A stretch of 55,576 nucleotides of DNA from positions 1 to 55,576 of the IMG/VR virus record IMGVR_UViG_3300013770_000001, one strand, 5' to 3'. This document shows positions 108 through 52,096 of the stretch, in pieces (position 1 is the stretch's first letter; the number at the start of each line of letters is the position of its first letter). The translations under genes and the position numbers were made by a program. The stretch comes from a virus (taxonomy: Duplodnaviria; Caudoviricetes). A model generated the notes under the pieces. The model saw nothing but the letters and a program-made list of their open reading frames with translations, did no database searches and was not told where the DNA came from.

Positions 108-219
108 GTATAACGTACCATGAATACCGGGAGGGGTTATTTGTACGTTTGTATCAGAGAAAATTCAGAGACCCCGGCCCGGCCAGGTCTCTACGACAGA
201 TTCGCGAATCATGTTCAAC

Positions 220-311
220 GGCCTGATTTCGAGGCCTTCTTGCATCAGGGATCTCGGACCAAGGGCCTGATTTCGAGGCCTTCTTGCATCAGGGATCTCG
301 GACCAAGGGCC
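220..311. repeat. Exact 44-bp direct tandem repeat (2 copies)
   Basis: ggcctgatttcgaggccttcttgcatcagggatctcggaccaag at 220 and 264. Confidence 0.9.
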
Positions 312-450
312 GGGGAGGTTATTTCCGACCAGCAAGGATCAGGTCTCCAAGAATCAAGAAGGCTTTGCAGAAAAATTTTGGAATGATTCCACTTTAATGA
401 AGTGTGTGGAATCATAAAACCAGAAAAGAAAAAATCTTTTTATTTTTCTT

Positions 451-476
451 GGAATTTTTTCGCGTGAAATGGGTTA
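451..476 (+). promoter_or_regulatory. Putative ECF-type promoter GGAATTTT-N14-GTTA for the packaging/virion operon
   Basis: Same motif and exact spacing recur at 26796, 34218 and (reverse strand) 33919-33944, each at the start of a transcription unit. Confidence 0.6.
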
Positions 477-541
477 GTCGTACGAAGAGAAGTAGGTGAT
501 TCCAGAATCGTTACAAATGCGGAATCATTGCCAAAAGAAGG

Positions 542-1135
542 ATGTCTCCCATGGATGCAAACGACCCCGCCAAACTAGTTCGAGCTGAGGGACAGTTCGA
601 CCCGGACAGGTGTCCGAGCATCGCTGGCAACGGGGATCAGTGTATCATGAAGAAGGCACCGGGCTGTGACCACTGTGCGATTCACGGTGCCAAGCAGCAG
701 ATGGCAAAGCAGGGGCAGAAGGCTCTTCAGAACTTCCGAATCACCATGTGGAAGGCGGACGCAGTCGAGGGCTTGAACAGCCCTGACCTGAAGTCTCTCC
801 GCGAAGAGATCGTGCTCGTCCGGATCATGGTCACTCAGAAGTGGGAAGCCTGTAAGGATGACCAAGGGAATCCTTCTGCGGCCAAGTTGATGTTAGCTTC
901 CGGGGCGATCACCGGGATGTTGGTTCAATTGGGAAAACTCGTTGAATCATGTCACAAGATCGAAGCGGCTACTGGTTTTTTGGTAGACAAGACCGACCTC
1001 ATGCGTGTTATGGGGACAATTTTGCAGATTCTGGGAGAGGAGGTAAAAGATCCGGAAGTGTTCGGTCAGATAAGCAAGCGGCTGATGGATACCATCAGCA
1101 AGGAAAATGGAGGAACTGATTATGTCGTTAGCTGA
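542..1135 (+). CDS. Putative terminase small subunit
   Basis: First gene of the virion operon; helical, N-terminal Cys cluster; called from position only. Confidence 0.4.
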   Translation: MSPMDANDPAKLVRAEGQFDPDRCPSIAGNGDQCIMKKAPGCDHCAIHGAKQQMAKQGQKALQNFRITMWKADAVEGLNSPDLKSLREEIVLVRIMVTQKWEACKDDQGNPSAAKLMLASGAITGMLVQLGKLVESCHKIEAATGFLVDKTDLMRVMGTILQILGEEVKDPEVFGQISKRLMDTISKENGGTDYVVS

Positions 1136-5103: not shown

Positions 5104-5526
5104 ATGATTGAAGTAGATCCCAAACTCTTCGGCGAAGATGCGTGGCTCGTTCAGATTGAAACGGATTCGCGAATCTTCTCCGGTGAACGGTGGAACATTC
5201 TGATGAACACAATGGAGGTCTTACATTCCGAGGAAACGAAAAGTGTTGTCGAGGGTTCGCTGACACATTTCAATCCGCAGACCGGAGAGGTGTATTGGGG
5301 TCCGTGCCCATTGACACCGCTCCAGTGTGAGAAGTTGGTGCTCCTTCAAGAAGATCAAGCGATCAACAAGGGAAGTGCGAATCTGAAAGGTATCTCGGTG
5401 ATTGCCGTCTCTGAGGCTCAGGCAATTGAGGATACAGCCCTCGTGGCCAAGATGGATGAAGCCGCGATTCTGGACTCCAAAATCGTCTTGGAAGTGGGAG
5501 AGATTCAGAAAGACTTGGTTGTCTAG
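5104..5526 (+). CDS. Hypothetical protein
   Basis: AGGAG RBS; intact ORF. Confidence 0.6.
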   Translation: MIEVDPKLFGEDAWLVQIETDSRIFSGERWNILMNTMEVLHSEETKSVVEGSLTHFNPQTGEVYWGPCPLTPLQCEKLVLLQEDQAINKGSANLKGISVIAVSEAQAIEDTALVAKMDEAAILDSKIVLEVGEIQKDLVV

Positions 5527-5567: not shown

Positions 5568-7238
5568 ATGCACCCGATGTTGGCTGAAGCTCTACAGACT
5601 CTTTGCAACGGTCTCGACCGCAAGGCGCTCGTGAAAGCGAGTGACTGGGCGGTCAAGTACCGTGTGATGGGCGGGGAACGACCCGGCCCTTGGAACTTTC
5701 GTCACTTCCCTTGGGCCAAGCAGATTCACGACACGCCAGCAGAGCGTGTCTGTGTTATGAAGGGCGCACAGTTGGGAATCACGGAAGTCGCAATTAACCT
5801 CGCCCTCAAGTGGATTGACATTGACTGTGCAAACGTGCTTTACTTGCTTCCGACCGAAGGGGGTGCAAACAAGTTCTCGGCAGCGCGTATTGAACCGGCA
5901 CTGGAATCATCCGAGCATCTGAAAAAGATCTTCGCCAACACCAAGAATATTGGACACAAACGAGCCGGAATGGCGAACCTCTTCATTCGTGGAACTCGGA
6001 GCAAGGAAGGTCTTAAATCTGATCCTATCAGTCTTTTAGTAGAGGATGAACTGGATGAAATGGAACAAGACAATCTGCCTCTTGCAGAAGAGCGCATGTC
6101 AGGCCATTCACATCGCAAGTTGTTCCAGATTTCAACACCAACAGTTGCAGATTACGGAATCGCAGCAGCTTACAAGAATTCCACGCAGAACCAGTACATT
6201 TTCAAATGCCCGTTCTGTAGCCGACAGACATTGCTGACCTATCCAGAATGTCTGTGCATCACTGCCGAGGATACGGAAGATCCAAAGATTCTCGAATCAT
6301 TCATCATGTGCCGGGAGTGCAAGCACAAGCTCGACCACCAGACGAAACACGAGTGGCTGGGTCTTGAAAACGCAGGTTGGGTACCTACATTCAAGGATCG
6401 TCTCACAGACGGCTACGGTCTGAATCAACTCTACTCGACCAAGGAACCACCATACAGCATTGCGAAGTCGGCTCTCAAGGCCCGGCTGGACCCGATAAGT
6501 GAACAGGAGTTCTACAACTCGAAACTGGGTCTTACCCACAAGATCTCCGGTGCGCAGGTTGATGACGAAGCCATTGCGAAATGTGTGAAGCAGTACCGGC
6601 AGACACGCCCGAACGAAGTAAAGGCAGCAGACCCTAACTACTTCTGCACGATGGGAATTGACATCGGGATTCAAAAGCATTTCGAGATTGACCAGTGGTT
6701 CATTGACCGGAACGCACCTGAAGCTGACTTGAATCTGAAGGCGACCTGCAGGATGATTCGCTGCGGGACAGTTCGCTCCTTCGATGAACTGCACTATTTG
6801 ATTGTGCAGTATTTCCCCAAGTTCGTTGTTGTAGACGCGCAGCCAGAGCGTACCATGTCTGCCGAGCTGGTCAAGAAGTTCTATGGTATCGCGCGTTGCT
6901 GCTTCTATGCAGGTGGCTGTACCGGTCGCCAGATTGTTGTTCGCCCGGCAGAGGATGGCTCGATCTCAGTAGATCGCACGTCTTGGATGGATCTGGCCAT
7001 TATGCGATTCATGAATGGCAAGATGCAAATTCCGTTTGACACGCCGCTGGACTACAAGGCGCATATCAAAGCACCTATCAAACACTACGGCCGTGACCGG
7101 GATGGGAATCCTGTTGCGCGGTATATTACTGGTGAGAGTACACCCGATCACTATGCACATGCCCGTACCTATTCTGAGATTGCTTTCCGAATGGCTACTT
7201 CTCGCGGGCATAGTCAAAATTTGGCAGGAGTAATCTAA
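5568..7238 (+). CDS. terL: Terminase large subunit, lambda GpA type
   Basis: Walker A KGAQLGITE, Walker B LLVEDELD, coupling motif ISTPT, CPFC/CREC zinc site, nuclease motifs GIDIG and DHYAHA. Confidence 0.9.
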   Translation: MHPMLAEALQTLCNGLDRKALVKASDWAVKYRVMGGERPGPWNFRHFPWAKQIHDTPAERVCVMKGAQLGITEVAINLALKWIDIDCANVLYLLPTEGGANKFSAARIEPALESSEHLKKIFANTKNIGHKRAGMANLFIRGTRSKEGLKSDPISLLVEDELDEMEQDNLPLAEERMSGHSHRKLFQISTPTVADYGIAAAYKNSTQNQYIFKCPFCSRQTLLTYPECLCITAEDTEDPKILESFIMCRECKHKLDHQTKHEWLGLENAGWVPTFKDRLTDGYGLNQLYSTKEPPYSIAKSALKARLDPISEQEFYNSKLGLTHKISGAQVDDEAIAKCVKQYRQTRPNEVKAADPNYFCTMGIDIGIQKHFEIDQWFIDRNAPEADLNLKATCRMIRCGTVRSFDELHYLIVQYFPKFVVVDAQPERTMSAELVKKFYGIARCCFYAGGCTGRQIVVRPAEDGSISVDRTSWMDLAIMRFMNGKMQIPFDTPLDYKAHIKAPIKHYGRDRDGNPVARYITGESTPDHYAHARTYSEIAFRMATSRGHSQNLAGVI

Positions 7239-9019
7239 TGGCGAGCATCTCCAGCTTACTACACCCCGAGTACGTTGCAAACGTATCGGACTGGAAACGA
7301 TTCCACGACGTGCTGGAGTCCGGGCGTCGCTATGTCGAAACGTACCTGACAAAGTATAGTGAGCGGGAGAATAACGACCAATTTCTAGAGCGGGTGGCCT
7401 CGGCATACGTTCCGGCACATGCCAAAGCAGCCGTTCTGGACGTGACGAACTCGATTGCCCAGCGCATGTGCGACGTGAAACGCACGATCCCTGATGATGA
7501 CTACAAACTGGCGATTCAGGGCTTGAACGGCGGGATTGATCGTGAAGGTTCGACCATCGAAGCCTTTTTGCGGACCAAAGTGCTGCCAGATCTTGCAGGT
7601 GTCGGCAAGATCGCAGTCTATGTGGATAAGGCGAAGATTCCCGAATCTGCCGATGCTCTTGAAGTTGCAGCGATTCGACCCTATTGCTACGTCTATCAGG
7701 CAGAAGATATCCATACTTGGCGGCATGTGAACGGCGAGCTAATGGTCGTCGTTCTCCGAGACTGTATCGAGACAATGGACGCCGCGACCGGGGCCGTCAT
7801 CGGGAACAAGGACCAGTATCGTGTCCTGAAACTCGTGACCGGCCTCGACGGTGAGAAATCCGTCAGTGTTCAGATTCTCGAAAAGGGTGCCGAAATGGAC
7901 ACCTCAGGTGGAACTCCTGATGTCGTGATCTCTTCTGAGAGTCTCAAACTCTCACGAATCCCGCTCGTGATTGGTGAACTCCCCGAAGCATTGCTCGAAG
8001 ACGTGGAAGCGGCGCAGGCAGCTCTGTTGAATCTGGCGTCGTCGGACTATACTTACGCCCTCAAAAGCAACTTCCCACTCTATACCGAGCAGATTGATCG
8101 TCTCGGTCAAGATGTTCCCGGTTTGGAATCTCTTGGTCCGAACGGTGAACAGCCAGATGAGACCGGCGGGATTCTGACCACAAATGTGGCGAATGCCAGG
8201 ACTGCCACTGTCAAGCCGAAAGTTATTCCAATTGGGGCAACGAACGGACGTGGCTACGCGAGTGGACTCGACCGCCCCGGCTTCATTAATCCGTCGTCAG
8301 AGCCGCTCCGGGCCAGTATCGAACTGCGGCAGACCATTAAGGAAGAGATTCGACAGATTATGAATCTGTCTTTGAAGAGTCTGTATGCACAGAGAGCGTC
8401 AGCAGACAGCAAGAAATTCGATGAATCCGGAATGGAAGCCGGCCTCGGTGTCATCGGCTACGAACTGCAACGCATGGAAATCGCGATTGCTGAAATCTGG
8501 ATGATGTACCAAGAGGTCGAAGGCCAAGTTATCATAAAATATCCGGAGGACTACTCCCTCAAGACGGATGATAGCCGCCGTTTGGAGGCAAAAGAGCTTG
8601 CAGAATTGACCATGACCGTGCCGTCTGTTTCGTTCCAGAAAGAACTCGTAAAAGAGGTCGTCTCGGTTCTCCGGAGGGGCAAATCGACACCAGACCAACT
8701 GAAGAAGATGTTTGATGAAATCGACGCACAGCCAGTGATTGTCACTGATCCAAAAGTCCTCATTGCCGATATGGAGGCTGGACTTGTTGGACCTGAACTG
8801 GCATCCAAAGTGCGCCTATACCCTGAAGGGGAGGCGAAACGTGGACAAGATGCAGTTGTCGAACGACTTGCCCGAATCATGGCGGCCCAGGGTGGCGCAA
8901 ACGGTACAAGAGGCGTCTCTTCGCCGGGTGACACCACCGCGGCAGATGAAAAGACGCTGTCTCAAACCCCAGCAGCCACTGGGGCAACGTCGGCTAAAAC
9001 TCGCGGGGAGGCCAAGTAA
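7238..9019 (+). CDS. Portal protein
   Basis: 593 aa directly after terL; N-terminal HPEY..W..F..YL..Y.ERE pattern typical of phage portals. Confidence 0.8.
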   Translation: MASISSLLHPEYVANVSDWKRFHDVLESGRRYVETYLTKYSERENNDQFLERVASAYVPAHAKAAVLDVTNSIAQRMCDVKRTIPDDDYKLAIQGLNGGIDREGSTIEAFLRTKVLPDLAGVGKIAVYVDKAKIPESADALEVAAIRPYCYVYQAEDIHTWRHVNGELMVVVLRDCIETMDAATGAVIGNKDQYRVLKLVTGLDGEKSVSVQILEKGAEMDTSGGTPDVVISSESLKLSRIPLVIGELPEALLEDVEAAQAALLNLASSDYTYALKSNFPLYTEQIDRLGQDVPGLESLGPNGEQPDETGGILTTNVANARTATVKPKVIPIGATNGRGYASGLDRPGFINPSSEPLRASIELRQTIKEEIRQIMNLSLKSLYAQRASADSKKFDESGMEAGLGVIGYELQRMEIAIAEIWMMYQEVEGQVIIKYPEDYSLKTDDSRRLEAKELAELTMTVPSVSFQKELVKEVVSVLRRGKSTPDQLKKMFDEIDAQPVIVTDPKVLIADMEAGLVGPELASKVRLYPEGEAKRGQDAVVERLARIMAAQGGANGTRGVSSPGDTTAADEKTLSQTPAATGATSAKTRGEAK

Positions 9020-9546
9020 TGACCTACACGATCACTATTGGAGCAACCAATTATACGTCTTATTTAAGCGTAGCGGCGGCAGCTACGATTCTGGAATCGG
9101 AACTGAACACGTCACCATGGGATTCGAGTGACGTTCCGCTTCGGGAGAAGGCACTCTTGATGGCGACACGTGTCGTGGAGTCACTGGCCTTTGCCGGATC
9201 GAAAGTGGACTCCACGCAGGTGCTCCAGTTTCCACGTCAGTTGAAGCTGCCGGTGAACTCTTGGCAGGGGGTGACTGGCTCTGTTCCCGGCCCAACGACG
9301 ATTCCTTCTCAGATTGAGAGGGCAGTTGCCTTGATGGCCGTTGCTTTCTTGGATGGCATCGACCCTGATATCGAATTCGATAATTTGCAGATGATTCACT
9401 CGAAGTACAATGGTATCGAGATGAATTTCGGGCGGGCCGAATATACCCAGTACAAAGTTCTGGGAATTCCATGCTACAGTGCATGGAAACTATTGAAACC
9501 CTTTCTCCGAGACGGCCGCGGGTTGTCTCTATCTCGGGTATCGTAG
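9019..9546 (+). CDS. DnaT-like head-tail connector (head completion) protein
   Basis: SYLSVA..W..EKALLMATR..F.G.K..Q.LQFPR..IP..I..A signature. Confidence 0.7.
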   Translation: MTYTITIGATNYTSYLSVAAAATILESELNTSPWDSSDVPLREKALLMATRVVESLAFAGSKVDSTQVLQFPRQLKLPVNSWQGVTGSVPGPTTIPSQIERAVALMAVAFLDGIDPDIEFDNLQMIHSKYNGIEMNFGRAEYTQYKVLGIPCYSAWKLLKPFLRDGRGLSLSRVS

Positions 9547-10890: not shown

Positions 10891-10931
10891 CCAGAATCGG
10901 ATGTTCCGATTCTAGAATCAAGGAGTTTGAC

Positions 10932-13147: not shown

Positions 13148-13659
13148 GTCAAGACCCACTGGAACGCGATCTATGGCCTCGCTGGATCTTTGCATCCTGT
13201 GCACAGTTCTTCAAAGAGCAACTGCCAACGGCAGATTTCTTTGTTGAGGGGCAGGAGTTCAAGGAGGACAATATCAAGGATTCTGTCCAGTTCAGGATGG
13301 ACGGTCCTCAGATTTCACAGATCAGTAGCACTATCTGGCGAGTGCGTCTGGAAGTCAATATCTATGCTCAATCAGTGATTCGGGAATCTTCTTGGCAGGA
13401 TATTCACAAATTGGTTGGACTCGTTTCAGCGGCGTTCAAAGACATCCCCGTCTATCGATTCGGAAAGGTGGAAGAGGATGCCCGCAATAATGATACCCTT
13501 TGGGACTGTCTCCGACTTGTTCAGGAGCTGACCGGACAGGACGGTGCTATAAATGTTACACACTTTGGGCAGGTCGTCCAAAATACCAAAGTAATGGCGG
13601 CAACTATCGCCGGCCACTACATCGTAGATCATGATACTGACATAGGAGGAATAGCATGA
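13144..13659 (+). CDS. Putative tail terminator
   Basis: Directly upstream of the tail tube gene; typical size. Confidence 0.45.
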   Translation: MSQDPLERDLWPRWIFASCAQFFKEQLPTADFFVEGQEFKEDNIKDSVQFRMDGPQISQISSTIWRVRLEVNIYAQSVIRESSWQDIHKLVGLVSAAFKDIPVYRFGKVEEDARNNDTLWDCLRLVQELTGQDGAINVTHFGQVVQNTKVMAATIAGHYIVDHDTDIGGIA

Positions 13660-14923: not shown

Positions 14924-14939
14924 AAAGGATTCGCGAATC

Positions 14940-33845: not shown

Positions 33846-33918
33846 TGGTGTCTCTGAATCTAGGAATCAAATCTCGCGGAGATTTGATTCTATGTCCTCT
33901 TAGAGTATCCGTATTGAA

Positions 33919-33944: not shown

Positions 33945-34217
33945 GGTAATTCTGTAATTTATTTGTGTCCTTATAAGGGGCCCCTCGCCCGAAAACAGTA
34001 AGCATATAACTGCTTTAGAATGAAGGATTTAACTGTTTTCGATAATAACTGTTTTCTAACAACTGCTGTATCTTTTCTCTTTCCTATTCTTTCCTTTACA
34101 GAAGTAGAAAACAGTAAGTAGTAATTCAGTTAAAGTATTCATTTTAAAAGACTTAGATTTTTGAAAAGAGTAATTCAGTTAGCTACAAATACTGGGCCAA
34201 TTAAATTTATTTTTCAC

Positions 34218-34243
34218 GGAATTTTTTAGTTCCTGCTAGGTTA
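34218..34243 (+). promoter_or_regulatory. GGAATTTT-N14-GTTA promoter motif driving the rightward operon
   Basis: ggaattttttagttcctgctaggtta. Confidence 0.6.
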
Positions 34244-34344
34244 TTCCTTTACCGCATATCTCATAGTGAGAAATGCACCGCCAGAATCGAATCCAGTAGA
34301 TTTGATTCGGCAGATTCATGAATCGTACTGGAGGAATCGTTATT

Positions 34345-35502: not shown

Positions 35503-36207
35503 ATGAGTGAAGCTGAACCAGAAAATCAATTGGCTGAGATTCCAGCATCAACTGGAGCTTTGGCGAAGAATAGCGATGCGCTCTTTGAGCAGATGGCGTC
35601 GCCGGGGGACTTCTTCCCACGTCTGCAACTGATCACAAACAAAAGCAGATACTGCGACCAAGGTGACGGCACTGGTGTCAAGGTGAATCATTTCGGGCTT
35701 TTCCTTGGGAAAGAACCAGAAGACGTGGGTGATCGTCTCGACTGTGTCATACCTGCTGACGCGTGGCGCCCGAAGGCGCTGTACACAGGTGACGGCTCGG
35801 GTGATTCGGAGTTTGTCTGCTCCCATGATCCTGAATCAGAAGCGTTCAGGTCGATTAGGAAACGGTCGGAATTTCCAGATTCGAAATGCCAGTATGGTCC
35901 TGAATTCCTGATTTACCTGCCGGAAAAGAAGAAGTTCGTGACTTTCTTCTGCGGGAGCAAATCCCAGCGCCGCGAAGCCGACAAGTTTCGCGCATTGCAG
36001 GGCGGAGCCGTTACGCTTTCGCCCCGTCGCGCCGAGAAGGGCAAGTTCGTCTGGTACGTCACCGTCGCGCAGAAATGCACGCGGAAGTTGGAACTTCCGA
36101 CGGCGACCGTCTGGAACGAATCCATGAACAAGTTCAGGAATCCTGCAACCGCCGAGACCAAAGAACGCAAGCCGGTTGAAGGCGCAGAAGGGGGACGTGT
36201 TCGTTGA
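35503..36207 (+). CDS. Hypothetical replication protein (possible ssDNA-binding)
   Basis: FPRLQL motif, aromatic/basic beta-rich core; position in the replication block. Confidence 0.45.
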   Translation: MSEAEPENQLAEIPASTGALAKNSDALFEQMASPGDFFPRLQLITNKSRYCDQGDGTGVKVNHFGLFLGKEPEDVGDRLDCVIPADAWRPKALYTGDGSGDSEFVCSHDPESEAFRSIRKRSEFPDSKCQYGPEFLIYLPEKKKFVTFFCGSKSQRREADKFRALQGGAVTLSPRRAEKGKFVWYVTVAQKCTRKLELPTATVWNESMNKFRNPATAETKERKPVEGAEGGRVR

Positions 36208-36710
36208 TTCCACTCTCAGTCTCCCGGCCCGATTGGGAGGCATTTACAAAGGGCTGCAAAACCTGTCTCGGCTATGATCCCATAGCCGAGATAGATGATG
36301 CGGGCCTTAGCAGGCAAGCAGGTGCTTTCCTTGCAACGCTCTCTCTGAGTGATGACCCGCTTGATAGCATCAAGAGCGGGCATCACTCGGCGGAGCATTT
36401 CTTTATTTCTTGCATGTCAGAAGCAACAGGTCTTTGTGTGATTCAGATTCTTGCAGCAACAAGGTTACAGTATCTCACAGTCGCCAAGACGATCAAACCA
36501 TTCGGAATCTTCTCAGGTTCATTCAAGGCGTGGACGGAAGCAATTCTTCATTTCTGCCAGAAAGATTCGTACCCGGAGGCCCGAAAAGAGTTCACTGATG
36601 TGTATCAGGCATTTATGAAAGACAAAGGCTTCATGCAGGTTTTCTCAGGATATAATGAGGTTGAAACTAATGACGGAATCATTCTTCTCCGCAGAGGGCG
36701 CCATTCCTGA
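36204..36710 (+). CDS. Short ThyX-like (Thy1 fold) protein, possibly degenerate
   Basis: GHHSAEHFF and SGSFKAW..I..FC resemble ThyX motifs; RHR motif absent. Confidence 0.35.
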   Translation: MIPLSVSRPDWEAFTKGCKTCLGYDPIAEIDDAGLSRQAGAFLATLSLSDDPLDSIKSGHHSAEHFFISCMSEATGLCVIQILAATRLQYLTVAKTIKPFGIFSGSFKAWTEAILHFCQKDSYPEARKEFTDVYQAFMKDKGFMQVFSGYNEVETNDGIILLRRGRHS

Positions 36711-38670: not shown

Positions 38671-39698
38671 TGGAAACGACGTTAATCCCCGGCGTAGAAG
38701 TGGTGAAGACTAAGTCCGCAGACGGAACGACCATCACGGCCAATGCGATTCCCATTGCCAAGATCTTCATGGATATGGAGTTCAACTCCCGGCAGCAGGA
38801 GTTGAATCCGTCGAAGGTCTCTGGCTTGGCAGGTGACATCCGGGATAAGACGACCGAATCATTCGGTGGCCTTATCAGTCCGGTTGTCATCAGCGACATC
38901 CCTGAATCACGGAAGCAGTTCGCACCTCCCGGCGCAGAACACTGGCTGGTCTGCGGCTATCGTCGTACTATGGCCTTCCAAGTCTTGGAACGCGAGACCA
39001 TCCCCGCAATCTATATCCCGCACCTCACGGAACTCGATGCCCGATTCATGAATCTGGCTGAGAATCTGATGCGAGAAGATTTGAACTTCGGACAGGAGTC
39101 GAAGGCCATTATTCCGCTCCTTGCCGAGACGAAGAACGAGGAAGAGATCGGCCGCAAGTTGGGTAAAAGTCGTGGCTGGGTACAGGTGCGCCGGATGTTC
39201 CTCGGTCTCCCGGAGGACATGCGCCGCAAGTTCCTCGAAGATGAAGGCCTCGTTTCCCAGCACCAGATTCGTGACCTTTCCAACGTGCTTGGAACCGCAG
39301 GCCCGGAGGCGGCACGGCGTGAGATGGCTCTGATGATTGACGCCAAACTTGGCGGGAAGACACCGCGCCGTGTCAATACCGAGCGGAAGAAATTGGGAAA
39401 CAAGTCGATTCGCACCAAGGGCGAGATCGAACAGATGCAGACGCATATCCGAGAAGCAATCGGGAATGGGCATCTCACAGTCATCCTTGGGTGGACAATT
39501 GGTGTCGTCACGAACGCAGAGGTTGCGGCCGTGATTCTGCAAGAGGCGAACACGCTCGGCAAGTTCTACAACCCAAGCGCAATGGAGGTGTTAGACGGTG
39601 ACAAATCAACAGAAGGCAAAGGCGACGTGGGCACCACCCAAAACGCTCCAGAAGGAGCAGGAGAATCTGTCGGAGAGGTGGGAACACCCTCTAATTGA
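38670..39698 (+). CDS. ParB/Spo0J-like protein 2
   Basis: GLISPVVI..LVCGYRRTMA Arg patch, NLAENLMREDL, HTH EEIGRKLGKSRGWVQ. Confidence 0.8.
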   Translation: METTLIPGVEVVKTKSADGTTITANAIPIAKIFMDMEFNSRQQELNPSKVSGLAGDIRDKTTESFGGLISPVVISDIPESRKQFAPPGAEHWLVCGYRRTMAFQVLERETIPAIYIPHLTELDARFMNLAENLMREDLNFGQESKAIIPLLAETKNEEEIGRKLGKSRGWVQVRRMFLGLPEDMRRKFLEDEGLVSQHQIRDLSNVLGTAGPEAARREMALMIDAKLGGKTPRRVNTERKKLGNKSIRTKGEIEQMQTHIREAIGNGHLTVILGWTIGVVTNAEVAAVILQEANTLGKFYNPSAMEVLDGDKSTEGKGDVGTTQNAPEGAGESVGEVGTPSN

Positions 39699-39999
39699 GA
39701 TCGAGGCAGCGATCTATGCGCAGGCAAAGATCACCGGATTCGCGAATCGGAAGCGTGAACTTCCAGAACTTCTCATGCTGGCAGTTTCGGAGCTTTCTGA
39801 GGCGCTCGAAGCTGATCGGGCAGGCGGTGGCCAGAGCGAAAAGATTCCGGAGTTCTCCAAGATCGAAGAGGAACTGGCTGATGCGGTAATCCGGATTCTG
39901 GATGCGAGTGCTTCACTCCGTCTCGGTGTCCCGAGGGCTATCATCGCGAAGATTCTCTATAACAAGCATCGTCCGAAACTTCACGGAAAGAGGTACTGA
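39598..39999 (+). CDS. MazG-like NTP pyrophosphohydrolase
   Basis: LMLAVSELSEALEADR..EEELADAVIRILD..K..YN..RP..HGK. Confidence 0.8.
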   Translation: MTNQQKAKATWAPPKTLQKEQENLSERWEHPLIEIEAAIYAQAKITGFANRKRELPELLMLAVSELSEALEADRAGGGQSEKIPEFSKIEEELADAVIRILDASASLRLGVPRAIIAKILYNKHRPKLHGKRY

Positions 40000-44410: not shown

Positions 44411-44540
44411 AGAGTCGGAGATTCCGGAATCAAGCTTCAAGCGCGGAGTTCACGAGGTCGTCTCCGAGAGTAGAGGAGTTCTTTCGGTGGGGCCGAACCC
44501 CGATCTGAGCGAACCGTACAGTCGCCCGGTGCAGGGATGA
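44214..44540 (+). CDS. Hypothetical protein (start uncertain)
   Basis: Stop overlaps the next gene's ATG (ATGA). Confidence 0.4.
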   Translation: MLNQMVFNPRDVMTPLGIAAEEGNPKAYRTHAMILLRESRLPSLSAVTRRQKEQQVIRLLVLAQCEESEIPESSFKRGVHEVVSESRGVLSVGPNPDLSEPYSRPVQG

Positions 44541-46772: not shown

Positions 46773-47015
46773 ATGACGACACTGGTCTTCAAACAGGCGG
46801 GACTCTGGTGCGCCTACTGTCTCGACTACAATCTAATGGCTGTGACACCAGTGATTCTGGAATCGATTGCTCTGTTGGAATCCATGGTCAAGATCCATGA
46901 AGGCGACTCGGTCCCAGTCGAACAGCAGTACTGGGATGCCTATGCTGCTATTGAGCTGAACCATTTCGAGCCGAAGAACAAGTTCATCAAATCGTGGAGG
47001 ATTAAGAATGGCTAA
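46773..47015 (+). CDS. Hypothetical protein
   Basis: AGGAG RBS before ATG MTTLVF. Confidence 0.45.
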   Translation: MTTLVFKQAGLWCAYCLDYNLMAVTPVILESIALLESMVKIHEGDSVPVEQQYWDAYAAIELNHFEPKNKFIKSWRIKNG

Positions 47016-47826: not shown

Positions 47827-47905
47827 TTGGGGCAGGGTGCTATGTCGATGAGTTCAAATGCTTGATTCGAGAATCGGGCGGTGTCATCCTCATGGAGGAG
47901 CGTGC

Positions 47906-48367
47906 ATGAAATTATACAGGCAGCGGGGAGAGAATTGTTTCCATATCGCAATGGCTTGTATCTTGGAGATTCCACCTCCGGAACTTATCAAGGTACTCGG
48001 CCATGATGGTAGGAAAATCCTATGGCCCAAGTACAAAGATACAAGGAGGTTCTGCGGCTTCCACCCGCAGGAAATGATTGACGCCGGCAAAAGACTCGGG
48101 CGGGCACTAACACTGATTGAGACCTCGCCGAGGTCAATACAGGATGACGACCTGCCGGAATACCGCGTGTTCCAAGATTCCCGCAGCGAGCAGGCAAGGC
48201 TCTTGAACTGGCTCCAGACTAGGCCAGCGGTTCTCTTTATCTCGTCGGATGTAGATCACGCAATCGGCTGGGACGGGTTTCAGGCATGGGATCAGGCAAC
48301 TGGCCGCTGGGAAAGATTCGAGAATCTGACGCCATATGCAGCACTGGTGCTCTGTGGAAAGATTTGA
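47906..48367 (+). CDS. Hypothetical protein, possible papain-like Cys-His-Asp fold
   Basis: Q....CFHIAMACIL ... HAIGWDG ... D; GGAGGAG RBS. Confidence 0.4.
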   Translation: MKLYRQRGENCFHIAMACILEIPPPELIKVLGHDGRKILWPKYKDTRRFCGFHPQEMIDAGKRLGRALTLIETSPRSIQDDDLPEYRVFQDSRSEQARLLNWLQTRPAVLFISSDVDHAIGWDGFQAWDQATGRWERFENLTPYAALVLCGKI

Positions 48368-48553
48368 TTCCATGGAATCAAATCTAGAAATCTCGGACCC
48401 TTACTACTGTGGACGGTTCCCAAAAAATAATTTTGGAATTGTCAAATAACATCGCACATGCCAAACAATCCATTGTAGAATGAGTCCTCGGAGGGAATTC
48501 CCGGCGGGAGTCTAGAATTTTGCCTTTCCAGTAGATTTGATTCGGAGAAGGAC

Positions 48554-49057
48554 ATGGCGGCGAATCTCTTGGCCCATGAGACGAAGATGATTCTGGAATC
48601 GGCCTCCCGATTCATCCAGATGGCACCTTCCAAGCGCGACGACATCTTGTCGGTTGCGACGTTGCGCTATCTTGAGATTCGTGGCCAAGGTCATTTGCCT
48701 GCGACGATGGCTGCGGCGATTCAGAACGCAGTAAGGGACTATCTGTACGAGGATCACTTAGTGCCCTGTCCGCCGTCACACGAATCATTTCCGAGTGTGA
48801 CGAGTCTGAGCGCGGGGAAGGAAGAGGCAGCGGTGAAAGAAGCACTGGAGTTGTTTGCTCGTCAAGATTCCGGTACGTTGCAAGAAATCTTCGAGCATTT
48901 GAATCTGTCTGTTCGGGAGAAGTCAGTCGCCCAGCGACTTGTGGAGGGTTACAAGGAATACGAAATAGCACAGTATTTGGAGTTGTCAGAGTCCGAAATA
49001 TCAAGGGTCGTCTCGTCCATCAAGGACAAATACATCAGGAGAAAGAATCATGACTAA
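48554..49057 (+). CDS. Sigma-70 region 4 (ECF-like) transcription factor
   Basis: LSVREKSV..LVEGY...EIAQYL.LSESEISR region-4 HTH; region-2-like DDILS..IQNAVRDYL. Confidence 0.65.
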   Translation: MAANLLAHETKMILESASRFIQMAPSKRDDILSVATLRYLEIRGQGHLPATMAAAIQNAVRDYLYEDHLVPCPPSHESFPSVTSLSAGKEEAAVKEALELFARQDSGTLQEIFEHLNLSVREKSVAQRLVEGYKEYEIAQYLELSESEISRVVSSIKDKYIRRKNHD

Positions 49058-50048
49058 CGTAATGGAAGCGGTGCATCCGGTCACAGGTCAGCCGCTGCAC
49101 TCAAACAAACCGGCATGGACTGGTATTGGTTACAAGACCAATGCCAAGACCTCACGTGAGGCGCTGGACTTGGCGAATCTGGATTGGGATGTGAAGATGG
49201 GAAGGGCCGAGTTCGTTGCGGGTATGCCGCCATTAACCTATACCTATCCCGACAAGTTCGTGACCTACCGGACGCCCCGGAACACGCCGATTCCACTCGG
49301 CATGGTCGGCCCCAAGTACCGTGTTCTCCAGAATCGCGATGCCTTCGCACTCTGCGATGAACTGGTGGGTACCGGCGAAGCGACGTATGAATCAGCCGGG
49401 ATGCTGGGGAATGGACGCCGGGTCTGGATGCTGGCGCGGTTGAAGGAGGACATGGTGATTCGAGCCGCAGGCGGGGAAGATATCAGCCGCCGCTTTCTGC
49501 TGTTCCTCAACAGTCACGACGGAAGCAGCGCGGTCGAGATCGTGCCGACCGACATGCGTGTGACATGCAGTAACATGCTGAACCGGATTCGGCGCGCAGG
49601 TGCGAAGCACAGCTACAAGGTGATGCACACTGCCGGCATGGGCGGGAAGCTGGACGAGATTCGGAGCATCTTCGCGGCCTTCCGCAAAGAAGACCTGATC
49701 TCTCAAGCAGCCGTGCAGCGCATGGCCGACACGTCGCTGACAGATCTGAAACTTGGCGAGATCGTCGACGAACTGTGGCATTTTGATCCAGACACCGAGA
49801 ACGAAAAGGTGCGGGACGCGCATTATGACCGCTCCGAACGGATTCAACGCCTGTTCAGAGCCGGCCTCGGCTCCTCACTGGCGCAGGACACGCGGTGGGG
49901 CGGTCTGAATGCGATCACCGCCTATGTGGACCATGTTATGACCGAGACGGCCACACCTGAGAATCGCTTCAAAAGCGTACTGCTCGGGAAAGGTGCGATC
50001 ATCAAACGCGCAGCGTTCTCCGCCCTGTACGTTCCGATTCAGGCCTAA
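49050..50048 (+). CDS. DUF932 family protein
   Basis: LGMVG..Y.VLQN..AF; ESAG.L..GRRVW; NSHDGS; RV.C.N.L; T.WG..NAIT.Y.DH. Confidence 0.85.
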   Translation: MTNVMEAVHPVTGQPLHSNKPAWTGIGYKTNAKTSREALDLANLDWDVKMGRAEFVAGMPPLTYTYPDKFVTYRTPRNTPIPLGMVGPKYRVLQNRDAFALCDELVGTGEATYESAGMLGNGRRVWMLARLKEDMVIRAAGGEDISRRFLLFLNSHDGSSAVEIVPTDMRVTCSNMLNRIRRAGAKHSYKVMHTAGMGGKLDEIRSIFAAFRKEDLISQAAVQRMADTSLTDLKLGEIVDELWHFDPDTENEKVRDAHYDRSERIQRLFRAGLGSSLAQDTRWGGLNAITAYVDHVMTETATPENRFKSVLLGKGAIIKRAAFSALYVPIQA

Positions 50049-50129
50049 AAGACTGAGGTCGATCTACTGGTCAGGTGCTCCCTCTCCCTCTCCCTCACCC
50101 GACCAGTAGATCCCTCCAAAGGATTCAAC

Positions 50130-51200
50130 ATGAGCAAGCGACAGTTCGTGCAACTAGCACACAAGTTCGAGCCAACCAAGAACCTGATCGGCGGCTATTT
50201 CGCCTCCGAGAAGCTGGACGGGATGCGCTGTCTATGGGATGGCGGAATCACTCGCGGGCTGCTCAAGACCACAGTGCCGTGGGCGAACACAGCGAAGGAT
50301 GGCCGCTACTTGCAGGATCAGGTCTGCACTGGCCTGTGGTCGCGATACGGACATCCGATTCAGGCACCGGACAGTTGGCTCGACACGCTGCCTCAGATCA
50401 TTCTTGATGGGGAGGTCTTCGACCGGCGGTCCCGGCAACGAATCATGTCTGTCGTCAAGCGGCAGACACCTATTGAGAGCGACTGGAAGGGTATCCAGTT
50501 GCACGTGTTTGACAGCCCGCCGCCGCATGTCCTCTTCGCCGATGGGGAGATACGGGAGACCAACTATAAGAAGTCGTTCTTCGGTGTCCGCTCGTGGGTG
50601 TCCGAGAAGCTGAACAAGCTCACTTGGATGTCTGGTGGCGATTGTCTCATGTTCAAGGATGTGTACAAGAAGCTGAAACTGATTCCGAAATCAGAGAACC
50701 TCGAAATCTTGGAGCAGGTGGAGCTTCCACAAGAGGAAGCGGCAGCTCGCTCTATGGTCGAGCAGATGGCTGATCGAATCTGCGGCGACGGTGGTGAAGG
50801 TGTAATGCTTCGAGCACCGTGCAGCGCGTACTACACAGAACGTGCCCACACGTTGCTCAAGTACAAGCCCTTGCACGATATGGAGGGTGAGATCACCGGC
50901 TACACGACGGGGCGGGAGACGGACCTAGGGTCGAAGCTCCTCGGCAAGATCGGTGCCTTGATTCTGCAGCTTGACAATGGACAGAGACTGGAACTGTCCG
51001 GTCTCACGGATGAAGAACGTCGATTGTGCTCCGGCGGCGAGCAATGGGCATTGGTGAATCCGGAGTGCGAGTTGCCTGCGGAGTTCGAGTCAATCAACTT
51101 CGTTCGCGGTGAACGAGTGACATTCAAGTACCGTGCATTTACAGATGCGGGAATCCCGCAGGAAGCACGCTATTGGAGGAAAGAGGACAACGGGCCTTGA
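50130..51200 (+). CDS. ATP-dependent DNA ligase
   Basis: SEKLDGMR (KxDG), LDGE, VFD, EGVMLR, LLKYK. Confidence 0.9.
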   Translation: MSKRQFVQLAHKFEPTKNLIGGYFASEKLDGMRCLWDGGITRGLLKTTVPWANTAKDGRYLQDQVCTGLWSRYGHPIQAPDSWLDTLPQIILDGEVFDRRSRQRIMSVVKRQTPIESDWKGIQLHVFDSPPPHVLFADGEIRETNYKKSFFGVRSWVSEKLNKLTWMSGGDCLMFKDVYKKLKLIPKSENLEILEQVELPQEEAAARSMVEQMADRICGDGGEGVMLRAPCSAYYTERAHTLLKYKPLHDMEGEITGYTTGRETDLGSKLLGKIGALILQLDNGQRLELSGLTDEERRLCSGGEQWALVNPECELPAEFESINFVRGERVTFKYRAFTDAGIPQEARYWRKEDNGP

Positions 51201-51204
51201 ACCC

Positions 51205-51912
51205 AAGAAATTCGGCCGAGTCCGGAGATTCCAAACTTGGATACGCCGATGAAGCCGCAGGACTACGATCCGCCAATGGTTTGGTGGGGTCTTTCAGATG
51301 ATTAACCGGGTGTGCCTCTGCCGCAAGGTAAGCATACTTCATCCGGTGCTGTGCGGTTGGGAGCAGGGGTTCTTGCCTGCGCCGTAAAAGATGACCGTAA
51401 GGGAGTCTTTCCGCACTTGAATTTCTGGATTCGGTACGCAAACAGGCAAAGCGATCCGCCAATGGTTTGGTGGGGTCTTTCAGATGATTAACCGGGTGAG
51501 CCTCTGCCGCAAGGTAAGCATACTTCATCCGGTGCAATGCGGTTGGGAGCAGGGGGGGGGTTCTTGCCTGCGCCGTAAAAGATGACCGTAAGGGAGTCTT
51601 TCCGCAGTTGAATTTCTGGATTCGGTACGCAAACAGGCAAAGCGATCCGTAAGGATGATTTTGCAGGTTCGAGACCTGTCCGAATCCAGAGGAGTACGCG
51701 TAGCCCAATGTAAGGAGGCACCTCGATAAAAAGAGGAAAAAGTGTGGGTATGCAATCCCATCGCGTATAAGTGGGAGGGAACTTGTTAGTTGAGAATCAG
51801 AGACTGAGGTAGCCGACAGGGTTGCTCCCTGATTCTCGGCAGAATGGTCCATGACTCAACTATACGGGGCGTACGGCTTGTAGCAGCAAGAGTATGTGCG
51901 TCCCTCCCATTG
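51205..51912 (+). ncRNA. Large ornate structured ncRNA (GOLLD/ROOL-class candidate)
   Basis: No credible ORF; many stems and GNRA loops; long-range helix 51771-51780 with 51901-51910. Confidence 0.6.
51266..51649. repeat. Tandem duplication, 186-bp and 191-bp copies
   Basis: Units start cgatccgccaatgg at 51266 and 51452; differ by four substitutions and G-run length (4 vs 9). Confidence 0.9.
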
Positions 51913-52096
51913 AATTTACGGTGGTCGTGGAGCAGATTCTGCATGTAGGGCTTCTCTTAATATCGCAGCGGGCAGACTAGCCGGCTGCCCGTTGAGAGAG
52001 GTTGAATCTGCTCCCGGCCGATTACTTTCTATTCCTGAATCTGTGATTCGGGAATCCGTCCTGAGATCGGTTATCTCAAGTATAAAGGTCGAAGCC

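Follow-up and report, generated by a model that had tools for sequence, protein, structure and literature searches.

The 12-bp motif GATTC-NN-GAATC, present in 31 exact copies in the 55,576-nt stretch of DNA analysed here (the window, an entire IMG/VR virus record without a cultured relative), is under selection at the level of DNA, and we put at about 0.85 the probability that it constitutes a binding-site system for a phage-encoded protein. Its anatomy is best read as that of a recognition site in which two 5-bp half-sites, GATTC and GAATC, face each other in inverted orientation, and comparison with related phages is best read as indicating that the protein that reads the motif co-evolves with it. 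All 31 coordinates listed in an earlier, sequence-only reading match the sequence, and there are no further copies:

199-210, copy GATTCGCGAATC, in crude ORF 120-386, frame 1
498-509, outside the crude gene calls, 33 nt ahead of ORF 542
1649-1660, on the left side of a GC-rich hairpin, not in a crude gene call
1686-1697, on the right side of that hairpin, likewise not in a crude gene call
5164-5175, genic copy
6287-6298, within the large terminase gene
7636-7647, copy
9087-9098, copy
10908-10919, upstream of the capsid gene (ORF start 10932), adjoining its ribosome-binding site
13377-13388, copy
14928-14939, with an ATG directly after it
17322-17333, copy
19297-19308, copy
20809-20820, copy
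23278-23289, copy
23909-23920, copy
26882-26893, close to the start of ORF 26843-27889
28406-28417, copy
30721-30732, between the methyltransferase gene and a MazG-like gene
33094-33105, within the primase-helicase gene
33175-33186, within the primase-helicase gene
34313-34324, copy GATTCATGAATC, overlapping the first ATG of the ParB-like 1 ORF
37204-37215, within the SNF2 gene
39043-39054, within the ParB-like 2 gene
39737-39748, within MazG-like ORF 39598-39999
44420-44431, copy
46853-46864, copy
47864-47875, 6 nt inside ORF 47858-48367
48315-48326, copy
48589-48600, close to the start of the sigma-like gene
52045-52056, copy

Dinucleotide-preserving shuffles (n = 100) gave a mean of 0.18 copies and a maximum of 2, none reaching 31, and about 1.1 copies are expected after allowing for the high frequency of both 5-mers. 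The enrichment also survives a codon-aware null, under which about one genic copy is expected against the 24 seen; the mean over 300 synonymous-codon shuffles was 8.1 copies (sd 1.15, maximum 12), a figure that includes the seven copies outside the crude gene calls, to which the shuffle was confined and which it could not touch. That the copies occupy different reading frames, as had been claimed, is borne out by the genic ones (8, 6 and 10 over the three frames), and the accompanying proposal that the constraint acts on DNA and not on protein is backed by the synonymous-codon shuffle and by the differing palindromes of relatives, described below. When the spacer in GATTC-Nk-GAATC is varied from k = 0 to k = 12, k = 2 yields 31 copies and every other k yields 0-2; 0-2 copies each result from the reversed arrangement (GAATC-Nk-GATTC) and from both direct arrangements. 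Near-copies number 20 with one mismatch and 67 with two, and no more, and we saw no conservation in the flanks of the copies. The central dinucleotide does vary, with eight of the ten strand-collapsed classes present (AA/TT and AC/GT are absent). The mean distance between copies is about 1.7 kb, their spacing is more even than random (CV 0.65 versus 0.97, P = 0.005), and they are 2-3 times enriched within 100-150 nt past a gene stop (P ~0.008). A separate matter from the 12-mer is the 4.8-fold excess of GAWTC in the window: the 5-mers GATTC and GAATC occur 497 times on both strands against 103 by zero-order expectation (4.84-fold), and GACTC/GAGTC, at 0.87 of that expectation, show no excess.

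The clade of the window is large and uncultured, with 415 primase-helicase relatives, and 31 of 76 distinct relatives carry an iterated palindrome of their own, the loci counted being distinct main-clade ones of 9 kb or more and the cut-off logP ≤ -8; the best logP in 60 Markov resamples was -3.9. Examples include GATT-N5-AATC, GATG-N4-CATC, GGTA-N4-TACC, GTTT-N4-AAAC and AGTTA-N-TAACT. When motifs and loci are cross-tabulated, each motif has 5-35 copies in loci of its own class and mostly 0-3 (4-5 in a few cells) in loci of other classes, the exception being a GATT-N4 locus (L068) with 12 copies of GATT-N5. Even spacing recurs, 26 of 29 relatives having a CV under the random mean, and 84% of the relatives' sites fall wholly within coding sequence. 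Planctomycetota-borne relatives have no iterated palindrome, though both ParB-like genes and the primase-helicase are present. The differing palindromes point to a private recognition code, for which the candidate reader is phage-encoded. We hypothesize that this reader would be a sequence-specific DNA-binding protein from the phage's conserved early/replication module. The module common to the clade consists of ParB-like 2, SNF2, X35 and ParB-like 1, then the primase-helicase, (the methyltransferase) and an exonuclease; these genes, and a sigma-like gene considered below, lie in the window as follows:

28540-29220, minus strand, RNase T/DnaQ-like exonuclease
29630-30490, minus strand, D12-class (Dam-family) N6-adenine methyltransferase, 286 aa according to the protein collection
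31122-33845, minus strand, primase-helicase (AEP-type primase, SF3/D5-like helicase, C-terminal winged-helix-like part), candidate reader
34318-35343, plus strand, ParB-like 1 (ParB_N and HTH_ParB; DGLHR replacing GERR), candidate reader
35503-36207, plus strand, X35, Pam3_Gp34/DUF5895-like, its predicted model weakly resembling gp32-type OB folds
36655-38670, plus strand, SNF2-family helicase
38670-39698, plus strand, ParB-like 2 (GYRR and ENLmREDL retained; recognition helix clade-invariant)
48554-49057, plus strand, sigma-70/ECF-like or GerE-type HTH protein with half-site arrays upstream

The half-site of the palindrome also builds direct (H-n-H) and inverted arrays around an AT-rich spacer in this module, in the window as in each related lineage with its own half-site. 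Those of the window, with the spacer itself, are:

26851-26859, double half-site AATCAAATC, close to the start of ORF 26843
33846-34317, AT-rich spacer separating the divergent primase-helicase and ParB-like 1 genes, candidate region for an origin and early promoters
33865-33889, half-site array AATCAAATC-N7-GATTTGATT on the left flank of the spacer, immediately upstream of the primase-helicase start
34293-34310, plus strand, direct double half-site CCAGTAGATTTGATTCGG on the right flank of the spacer, 3 nt ahead of the copy at 34313
48360-48385, perfect 26-bp palindrome AGATTTGATTCCATGGAATCAAATCT ahead of the sigma-like gene, each arm holding two half-sites
48528-48545, plus strand, second copy of CCAGTAGATTTGATTCGG, 9 nt ahead of the ATG of the sigma-like gene

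The control-region arrays take the form AATCAAATC..GATTTGATT in GATT-type phages and CCATCCCATC..GATGGGATGG in one GATG-type phage; other phages have GTTTaGTTT, GAGTtGAGT, TGAGtTGAG, CTTCgCTTC, GGTTtGGTT or GGTCtGGTC. Half-site arrays upstream of the sigma-like gene occur in the window and in one relative.

Among candidate readers we place ParB-like 1 first, as a tentative choice. It belongs, as an HTH protein, to the ParB/KorB/Noc family, and a dimer of it would occupy each palindrome; the arrays would be operators at early operons (its own, that of the primase-helicase, and the sigma gene), and the 31 dispersed copies, ~1.7 kb apart, would load or anchor it genome-wide. This scheme resembles the use that KorB makes of the dispersed operators through which it acts in plasmid RK2. 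Counting for ParB-like 1 are its ParB_N and HTH_ParB domains, its matches to Spo0J/ParB/Noc structures, and a site over its own first ATG with a double half-site 3 nt upstream (a second ATG, preceded by a GGAGG site, lies 27 nt downstream of the first). The enrichment of copies past gene stops also counts for it, and so do the arrays before the sigma-like gene and ORF 26843, which show the pattern of a global regulator and not that of a single origin. Against it, direct double half-sites with a 5-bp period are, to our knowledge, not usual for ParB-dimer sites, and the Planctomycetota-borne relatives have both ParB-like genes without the iterated palindrome. Around the presumed recognition helix of ParB-like 1 (KSxxWIxxRL), residues change freely inside the GATT class and scarcely differ between a GCTC-type and a GATT-type phage; among columns of ParB-like 1, none was found to follow the half-site more closely than control-protein columns do. 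ParB-like 2 has one and the same putative recognition helix (SRGWVQVR) in phages of different half-site classes, and no residue of either ParB tracks the half-site. No ParA-type partner was found among the 40 ORFs scanned with Pfam. Clade-wide, ParB-like 1 has DGLHR where ParB carries the nucleotide-binding motif GERR, and a CTP-driven sliding clamp is therefore unsupported. In its favour, KorB is described as a ParB-family clamp capable of long-range silencing (PMC11790492), and ParB-fold proteins without the CTP motif as able to bind ATP or GTP (PMC12704722). The sequence-only reading had proposed a dispersed site system for a phage DNA-binding protein, with the ParB-like proteins as one example of a reader; the palindromes of relatives and the arrays strongly support the site system, but the lack of GERR in ParB-like 1, the invariant helix of ParB-like 2 and the absence of tracking residues weaken the ParB-like reader.

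The primase-helicase is an equally serious candidate, if itself a doubtful one. As a self-loading initiator, its monomers or hexamers would bind the direct arrays flanking the AT-rich spacer, which would be the origin; inverted pairs would serve as operator or loading sites, and the dispersed palindromes, separated by roughly the length of an Okazaki fragment and, through their symmetry, usable on either strand, would be secondary sites for loading or priming. In the window, and likewise in relatives spread over many half-site classes, the initiator gene does adjoin an AT-rich region with a set of short repeats on either side. In SaPI origins an AT-rich region lies between two groups of short iterons, in the SV40 origin GAGGC pentamers are arranged 2+2 and inverted, and Rep proteins of iteron plasmids use one half-site in direct repeats at the origin and in inverted repeats at their own promoter. 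The 1.7-kb mean spacing is close to the size of bacterial Okazaki fragments, and the best solved folds for the primase-helicase model are the NrS-1 and SaPI5 primase-helicases, PriRep1 with dsDNA, ASFV PrimPol and MPXV E5. Among 871 columns conserved in GATT-type phages, scanned over seven proteins, position 246 of the primase-helicase differs in the most other classes (10 of 12); it lies in a basic loop, RRKNLPQ, and is Q in GATT, K in GATG and R in GAGT and GATC. In a wider set, however, many loci that still have AATC-type arrays carry K, R, S, A or H at this position, and covariation with the half-site is therefore inconsistent; the C-terminal winged-helix-like part showed no class-specific pattern. 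Also against the primase-helicase as reader are the arrays upstream of the sigma-like gene and ORF 26843, and the Planctomycetota-borne relatives that have the protein without iterated sites; no initiator known to us has dozens of sites within genes.

It is unlikely that another phage protein is the reader, acting as a repressor or activator with the dispersed sites as stoperator-like roadblocks; candidates are the sigma-70/GerE-type HTH protein (48554-49057), a fast-evolving small ORF (36204-36710) or a regulator outside the conserved module. Short half-sites, either single or paired with two bases between them, are bound by GerE/NarL-type HTH proteins, and the strongest half-site structure in the window, the 26-bp palindrome with a double half-site, precedes the sigma-like gene. 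A clean recognition code, moreover, is seen in neither ParB nor primase-helicase. The sigma-like protein is fast-evolving, with weak homologues (17-30% identity) in three of five relatives' records; with the window's protein as query, none was found in the other two. Upstream of these homologues lie direct and inverted half-site arrays in a GATT-type relative (L181), two copies of the relative's own palindrome in L180 and isolated sites only in L182. Yet the GerE match is just 1.2e-05 and the ECF sigma model falls under its cut-off. As for roadblocks, stoperators are oriented, whereas the phage's sites are palindromes without orientation, and 84% of the relatives' sites sit wholly inside coding sequence. 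The earlier comparison with stoperators accordingly holds in concept, that of many dispersed, co-evolving sites, but not in anatomy.

It is improbable that methylation maintains the palindrome, the phage Dam-family or a host methyltransferase modifying the two GAWTC sites in each copy and a methylation-linked process or reader preserving them, as has been proposed for HIP1. The phage does encode an adenine methyltransferase of the D12 class whose DPPY motif is intact, GAWTC is enriched and GASTC is not, and GAT lies within most half-sites of methyltransferase-bearing relatives; GAWTC is at least 2-fold enriched in 28 of 93 loci with the gene versus 2 of 29 without it (Fisher P = 0.012, the loci being non-independent and the sets overlapping). 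This HIP1-like alternative, also raised by the sequence-only reading, is disfavoured because relatives without a detected DNA methyltransferase retain palindromes: strong ones occur in 11 of 16 relatives that lack a methyltransferase gene in the syntenic position between primase-helicase and exonuclease, and several of these (GTTT, GAGT, AGTTA) contain no GAT. None of five whole relatives' records, one with terminal repeats, matches PF02086, PF01555 or PF00145. To judge from these gene complements, the methyltransferase is unneeded for the palindromes in relatives. Of the four two-GAWTC arrangements, T..A alone is enriched; motifs such as GATT-N5-AATC have no GAWTC inside, and direct arrays (GATTTGATT) are non-palindromic targets. 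GAWTC-specific methyltransferases are known (PMC8919816), but GAWTC is depleted, not enriched, where its methylation is known.

Least probable is a motif shared with the host, whether as a mark of host composition or repair or as an uptake, Chi-like or regulator site there. The 12-mer is commoner than its reversed control in 301 genomes (at least one copy in 268; control mostly 0), but the counts per genome are 2-9 in five genomes and 0-60 in the 301, against 31 in 55.6 kb; the top density, 60 copies over 6.3 Mb, is lower than that of the window by a factor of at least 58. The motifs of relatives differ, and each goes with arrays in the control region of its own phage; nor would a mutational signature predict even spacing or concentration at phage control regions. 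Two checks named by the sequence-only reading, the codon-aware null and the density in possible host chromosomes, support the finding: none of 306 bacterial genomes searched, among which the phage's host may not be included, shows a comparable density.

Were ParB-like 1 the reader, its genome-wide loading could serve silencing, compaction, or self-marking against co-infecting relatives.

All 31 copies of GATTC-NN-GAATC (the 12-mer) that the sequence-only reading had located in the window were recovered at their coordinates, and there are no further copies. Dinucleotide shuffles of the window give a mean of 0.18 copies and a maximum of 2, and the frequency in the window of its two half-sites, the 5-mers GATTC and GAATC (jointly GAWTC), leads to an expectation of ~1.1. 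The arrangement is specific: when spacers of 0-12 nucleotides were compared, N2 alone was enriched (31 copies vs 0-2 at the others), the other three orders of the two 5-mers occur 0-2 times each, just 20 one-mismatch copies are present in the window, and the flanking bases are without conservation. The claim that most copies lie inside genes, in differing frames, also holds (24 of 31 are genic, and all three frames are used), and it survives a codon-aware null model. When synonymous codons were shuffled inside 65 crudely called ORFs, which cover 93% of the window, a mean of 8.1 copies was obtained, 7 of which are immovable because they lie outside the gene calls, so that ~1 genic copy is expected vs 24 seen; the same shuffle lowers GAWTC from 497 to 237. 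Spacing between the copies is more regular than for randomly placed points (CV 0.65 vs 0.97, P = 0.005), with a density of one per 1.8 kb and a largest interval of 4.7 kb, and the copies are 2-3-fold enriched within 100-150 nt downstream of gene stops (P about 0.008). At 1649-1697, between the ORFs at 1107-1640 and 1713-2204, two identical 12-mers (GATTCGAGAATC), 37 bp apart, flank a GC-rich hairpin, GGAGGGCC-loop-GGCCCTCC.

The window record is linear, with a completeness estimate of 60%. Its structural genes include a gpA-type large terminase, tail genes, and a capsid protein that is remotely like those of actinophages and cyanophages. The replication block carries on its minus strand an RNase T-like exonuclease, a D12-class adenine methyltransferase, a MazG-like pyrophosphohydrolase and an AEP-primase/SF3-helicase fusion, and on its plus strand ParB-like 1, the protein X35, an SNF2 helicase, ParB-like 2, a second MazG-like protein and a family A polymerase; beyond it are an NYN-domain protein, a sigma-70/GerE-like HTH protein (the sigma-like protein), a DUF932 protein and a ligase. 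One MazG-like gene adjoins the methyltransferase gene, and the presence of two such pyrophosphohydrolases may hint at a modified nucleotide pool. Searches of cultured phages (blastn and tblastn) with 8 kb of window DNA gave no match, remote capsid hits were of at most 33% identity, and there was one weak primase match; a scan that used the terminase alone as query yielded no relative.

Features of the window
29630-30490, minus strand: D12-class adenine methyltransferase
30474-30911, minus strand: MazG-like pyrophosphohydrolase, next to the methyltransferase
31122-33845, minus strand: primase-helicase
33846-34317: AT-rich spacer
33865-33889: left array, AATCAAATC-N7-GATTTGATT
34293-34324: right array, CCAGTAGATTTGATTCGG, then a 12-mer over the first ATG of ParB-like 1
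34318-35343, plus strand: ParB-like 1
35503-36207, plus strand: X35
36655-38670, plus strand: SNF2 helicase
38670-39698, plus strand: ParB-like 2
39598-39999, plus strand: second MazG-like protein; the two MazG-like proteins match phrog_801 'dATP/dGTP pyrophosphohydrolase' (1.2e-41) and phrog_3301 'pyrophosphatase' (1.1e-21)
48360-48385: 26-bp perfect palindrome, two half-sites per arm, 150 bp further upstream of the sigma-like gene's 18-mer
48554-49057: sigma-like HTH protein
54233-54305: tRNA-Ala (anticodon TGC), near the record's right end

A profile built from methyltransferase homologues (39-50% identical) retrieved 63 IMG/VR loci, 62 of which share the synteny ParB-like 2, SNF2, X35, ParB-like 1 / primase-helicase, methyltransferase, exonuclease; their primase-helicases are 44-55% identical to that of the window. 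A scan with a primase-helicase profile found 415 relatives, and the 80 that were analysed added 74 new loci. In an unbiased scan for gapped palindromes, strong iteration of a private motif emerged in many of the methyltransferase-profile loci: GATT-N5-AATC (20.8 kb with as many as 30 copies), GATG-N4-CATC (up to 33), GGTA-N4-TACC (25), GATT-N4-AATC, (T)GATA-N5-TATC(A) and TGAT-N6-ATCA. The primase-helicase-profile loci add GTTT-N4-AAAC, GAGT-N4-ACTC / TGAG-N6-CTCA, AGTTA-N-TAACT, CTTC-N3-GAAG and GCTC-N4-GAGC; at least 14 different half-site/spacer versions occur among the relatives. Such a palindrome reaches an enrichment score (logP) of -8 or lower in 31 of 76 main-clade loci (at least 9 kb, overlaps removed), where the best of 60 first-order Markov resamples scores -3.9. 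When loci are cross-tabulated against motifs, those of a motif's own class hold 5-35 copies and the others mostly 0-3, with a few cells at 4-5; L068, a GATT-N4 locus, additionally contains 12 GATT-N5 copies.

Regular spacing is general among the relatives: the CV falls under the random mean in 26 of 29 loci, a count that includes L008, a tandem array to be set aside. Non-coding DNA is touched by 156 of 961 sites (89 expected, some loci being from the same contigs), and therefore most of the relatives' sites are intragenic. The L008 array, with its CTAG-N5-CTAG / ACTA-N5-ACTA periodicity (13-27 hits, spacing CV 0), is a simple repeat that is unrelated to the dispersed sites. Six relatives that have no iterated palindrome (L010, L016, L048, L024, L059 and L058) display an over-represented, non-palindromic 8-mer containing GAT/ATC, with counts of 18 for CAAGATCA, 15-16 for GAAAATCA, and 13 each for AAGATTAA, CTGATAAG and CATCGACA; in L058 and L059 such 8-mers belong to control-region arrays.

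The half-site of the palindrome also builds arrays in control regions. In the window, the AT-rich spacer parts the divergent primase-helicase and ParB-like 1 genes and has half-site arrays on both sides; the 12-mer at 34313 overlaps the first ATG of ParB-like 1, and another copy, at 39043, lies within ParB-like 2. The 18-mer of the right array recurs upstream of the sigma-like gene. This layout recurs in relatives, each time built from the half-site of the phage concerned: CCATCCCATC..GATGGGATGG in a GATG-type phage and, in further loci, CATCGACATC..GATGTCGATG, GTTTaGTTT, GAGTtGAGT, TGAGtTGAG, TATCaaTATC/GATAttGATA, CTTCgCTTC, GGTTtGGTT and GGTCtGGTC; one relative has three tandem copies of GTTACC-N4-GGTAAC upstream of ParB-like 1. 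Upstream of the sigma-like homologue, L181 (GATT-type) has half-site arrays and L180 has two copies of its own palindrome. In the window and its relatives, two sets of short repeats surround an AT-rich spacer beside the primase-helicase gene, as in an iteron origin. Since dispersed sites and control-region arrays co-vary over many lineages, which is our main evidence, the motif is best read as the binding site of a phage-encoded, co-evolving DNA-binding protein. The spacer core of eight loci (L009, L014, L074, L094, L107, L114, L118 and L127) also contains a palindrome, (C)GTAAGTC-N10-14-GACTTAC(G), which is constant across lineages with different half-sites.

Which protein would read the 12-mer? 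We rank ParB-like 1 first, at a rough probability of 0.4, because arrays precede several operons in the manner of a KorB-like global regulator, and because ParB-fold proteins can use other nucleotides. The protein carries the ParB N-terminal and HTH domains, with matches to PF02195 (1.5e-09), PF17762 (3.2e-07) and TIGR00180 (68 bits vs a cut-off of 58), and both ParB-like proteins match Spo0J/ParB/Noc structures. Of the CTP-binding GERRxRA and ENLQRExL clamp motifs, the first is altered in ParB-like 1: DGLHR replaces GERR in all 49 aligned sequences, a few of which have Q or N for H. Passages in PMC12704722 indicate that nucleotides other than CTP are usable by ParB-fold proteins. The putative recognition helix of ParB-like 1 varies without relation to the half-site; the best column, Y181, differs in 7 of 12 classes, yet is common to the GATT, GATG, GCTC and GGTC types. 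ParB-like 2 retains GYRR and ENLmREDL, and its helix is invariant over phages of different half-sites, which fits a conserved target, not the variable half-site; the GTAAGTC..GACTTAC palindrome, whose constancy parallels that of the helix, could be its site. Among 40 ORFs scanned with Pfam, in a record that is ~60% complete, there was no match to a ParA/CbiA-type ATPase, a KorA-like or IncC partner, a repressor or an integrase.

The primase-helicase ranks second, as a somewhat unlikely reader, because one half-site, direct and inverted around an AT-rich region, is the classic layout of an initiator and its origin. Its predicted structure (pLDDT 84) matches NrS-1, the SaPI5 primase-helicase, PriRep1-dsDNA, ASFV PrimPol and MPXV E5, a likeness of fold only; among these proteins are initiators that recognize their own origins. 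Position 246 of this protein, which differs in 10 of 12 other classes, is the top of 871 GATT-conserved columns in seven proteins; its residues (Q in GATT, K in GATG, R in GAGT and GATC) would suit base contacts. In a wider set of 134 sequences position 246 is inconsistent, with K, R or S at many loci with AATC arrays, and the C-terminal part of the protein yielded no half-site code. Specificity-determining columns were accordingly set aside as a route to the reader, since the top column failed and neither the ParB helices nor the primase-helicase C-terminus offers a code. When sister phages with different motifs are compared by the pairwise identity of their module proteins, every protein diverges in parallel, and the comparison does not inform on the reader. 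The proposal of the sequence-only reading stands in part: a dispersed site system that co-varies with the lineage arrays is strongly supported, whereas its assignment to ParB-like 1 or 2 gains no residue code.

The sigma-like protein is a further candidate. It matches GerE and, weakly, an ECF sigma model, and its homologues in L180 and L182 are open frames of 222-241 aa in which stretches resembling regions 2 and 4 are seen; judging by this resemblance, a sigma factor is probably encoded by the clade itself. X35 was rejected as a reader: the protein atlas places it as Pam3_Gp34/DUF5895-like, and its model (pLDDT 83) has weak matches (best E 4.6e-03), among them a PhiC31 RDF fusion and gp32-type OB folds, which make it more likely a predicted single-strand-binding OB-fold protein.

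The sequence-only reading had offered a HIP1-like palindrome tied to methylation as the alternative. In its favor, the window encodes a D12-class methyltransferase, whose nearest solved relative is E. coli Dam (E about 5e-04), and the 12-mer contains two GAWTC. The comparison of relatives with and without the gene went the other way. Sixteen loci of at least 9 kb have the exonuclease following the primase-helicase with no methyltransferase gene between them (gaps down to 156-850 bp), and 11 of these 16 have a palindrome at logP of -9 or lower, several without GAT. Such phages are represented by five whole records (50-74 kb, direct terminal repeats being present in one), none of which matches PF02086, PF01555 or PF00145, three methyltransferase families that were matched by control genomes. 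Moreover, only one of the four pairings of two GAWTC is enriched in the window, and GATT-N5-AATC and like motifs contain no GAWTC. The methyltransferase is thus rejected as a general cause, and a methylation or HIP1-like origin of the palindrome appears disfavored as far as phage enzymes of these three families go.

GAWTC by itself is the window's most over-represented 5-mer, at 4.84-fold over the zero-order expectation (497 vs 103; 249 and 248 for the two 5-mers on the plus strand vs about 50 expected), with GASTC (GACTC/GAGTC) at 0.87 of expectation. Outside the 12-mers there are 435 GAWTC, and isolated GAWTC are in 4.2-fold excess; the relatives' isolated half-sites are at 0.8-1.7 times expectation, an excess like the window's not being seen there. 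GAWTC reaches at least 2-fold enrichment more often in loci with a methyltransferase gene (28 of 93) than in those without (2 of 29; P = 0.012, the loci not being independent). The window's excess may reflect a distinct process related to methylation, or single half-sites may have a use that is particular to the window. Other words are strongly depleted in the window: CCWGG (15 vs 125 expected, 0.12), and CCCGGG, GCTAGC, GGTAAC/GTTACC and GAGCCC/GGGCTC, with 1-2 copies each, which suggests avoidance of restriction sites. GATC is absent from L072 and L074 (closely related phages, 12.6 and 18.7 kb; observed/expected 0.0), which suggests strong avoidance of a GATC-cutting enzyme.

The possibility of a signature of the host chromosome was approached through a primase-helicase profile search of 185,579 species' genomes, which yielded 38 loci; the record titles of 29 name Planctomycetota, Pirellulales, Thermoguttaceae or similar taxa. 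In these deeper relatives (36-43% identity) the module lacks the methyltransferase, and the spacer is short (140-330 bp) and made up of a single long inverted repeat that is specific to the locus. Among the 24 loci of at least 9 kb, no iterated palindrome was found except in two phage-sized contigs, L142 (GGTT-N5-AACC, 10 copies) and L146 (GATT-N4-AATC, 29 copies). Several of the loci (L147-L158 and L164) lie in Planctomycetota contigs of 0.4-4.2 Mb, two of them in one chromosome; these are probably prophages, and they give a first host lead for the clade's deeper branch. Five of those genomes contain 2-9 copies of the 12-mer each, and 301 genomes from the phylum to which the L147 genome belongs contain 0-60, a density of no more than one per 105 kb. 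An equal density in the host would have pointed to a host mutational signature; the 306 genomes hold a maximum of 60 copies each vs one per 1.8 kb in the window, and as far as these genomes go, the palindrome does not appear to be a host-wide signature.

Two other readings were rejected: a promoter is argued against by the palindromic site, by the 24 of 31 genic copies and by the 84% of relatives' sites that are fully coding, and an RNA hairpin, with a stem of 4-5 bp and a loop of 2-4 nt, was judged by inspection to be too weak.

The binding-site reading has precedents. The KorB OB operators of RK2 (IncP) are short palindromes with a free central position, scattered over ~60 kb, some at promoters (the one that drives the operon of the reader itself among them) and others far from promoters. 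KorB is described, in PMC11790492, as a ParB-family HTH protein that acts at a distance. The window shares with KorB-OB a dispersed, free-centered palindrome, some copies near control regions, and a ParB-family candidate reader; it differs in a ~2.5-fold higher site density, in the lack of GERR from ParB-like 1, and in direct double half-sites beside the palindromes. According to PMC9283540 and PMC6550527, related Cluster A mycobacteriophages differ in their stoperator motif, which evolves together with the protein that reads it. Like the 12-mer, stoperators number tens of 12-14 bp copies over a ~50 kb phage genome, mostly outside classical promoters; unlike it, they are asymmetric, oriented with transcription and bound by the monomeric immunity repressor of temperate phages. 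The 12-mer, examined as a stoperator, is a perfect palindrome with a free center and not an asymmetric, oriented site, and its half-site, unlike a stoperator, also builds origin-like arrays.

The origins used by SaPI Rep/PriRep, iteron-plasmid Rep and SV40 large T have two repeat sets flanking an AT-rich region beside the initiator gene, and use one half-site in direct and inverted arrangement, a layout that is classic for initiator origins. Iteron repeats, however, stay at the origin or a few control loci, whereas the window has 31 further copies along the genome. Noc binding sites are many dispersed ParB-family palindromes across a replicon. PMC5961200 describes, for the half-parS sites of chromosomal ParB, many dispersed palindromes and half-sites that organize a whole replicon. 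Noc and half-parS sites have a density of about one per 50-100 kb; the window, which is viral, has a site every 1.8 kb. HIP1 (GCGATCGC) of cyanobacteria is a short palindrome, hundreds-fold over expectation, genic in all frames, that overlaps a methyltransferase target. It is, however, a feature of the host chromosome with a methylated core, whereas the motif here is phage-specific, changes between relatives, is kept without methyltransferase genes and, unlike HIP1, is linked to control-region arrays.

That scattered sites can evolve together with their reader is known already from stoperators, KorB operators and Noc sites. Literature searches on motif strings of the GATNNNNNNATC type found FNR boxes and no paper that uses them in this sense; those on highly iterated palindromes in bacteriophage found none that are phage-borne, and those on phage ParB and over-represented palindromes found nothing on this clade or its motifs. 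The apparent novelty lies in the anatomy, in the tie to origin-type arrays, in the even spacing and in how many half-site variants there are. As an improbable proposal, we hypothesize that the clade has a private genome-marking code: a lineage palindrome derived from the origin half-site, with the self-loading primase-helicase or a partner from its module as reader, would limit replication initiation, priming or protection to DNA bearing the phage's own mark. Each lineage would seed its whole genome every 0.7-2 kb with its own palindrome, the mark would exclude co-infecting relatives and perhaps the host chromosome too, and selection for incompatibility among phages would have left its mark in the rapid replacement of half-sites.

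The dispersed-site principle here appears in a large, wholly uncultured phage clade and with a simple, readable anatomy: a half-site of 4-5 bp forms direct arrays where the region is origin-like, and palindromes at even intervals through the genes. In practical terms, a contig's motif predicts its phage lineage. The clade also provides a natural series in which the drift of DNA-recognition specificity can be traced along with dozens of sites, and it could reveal the benefit to a phage of a genome that bears a mark every 1-2 kb.
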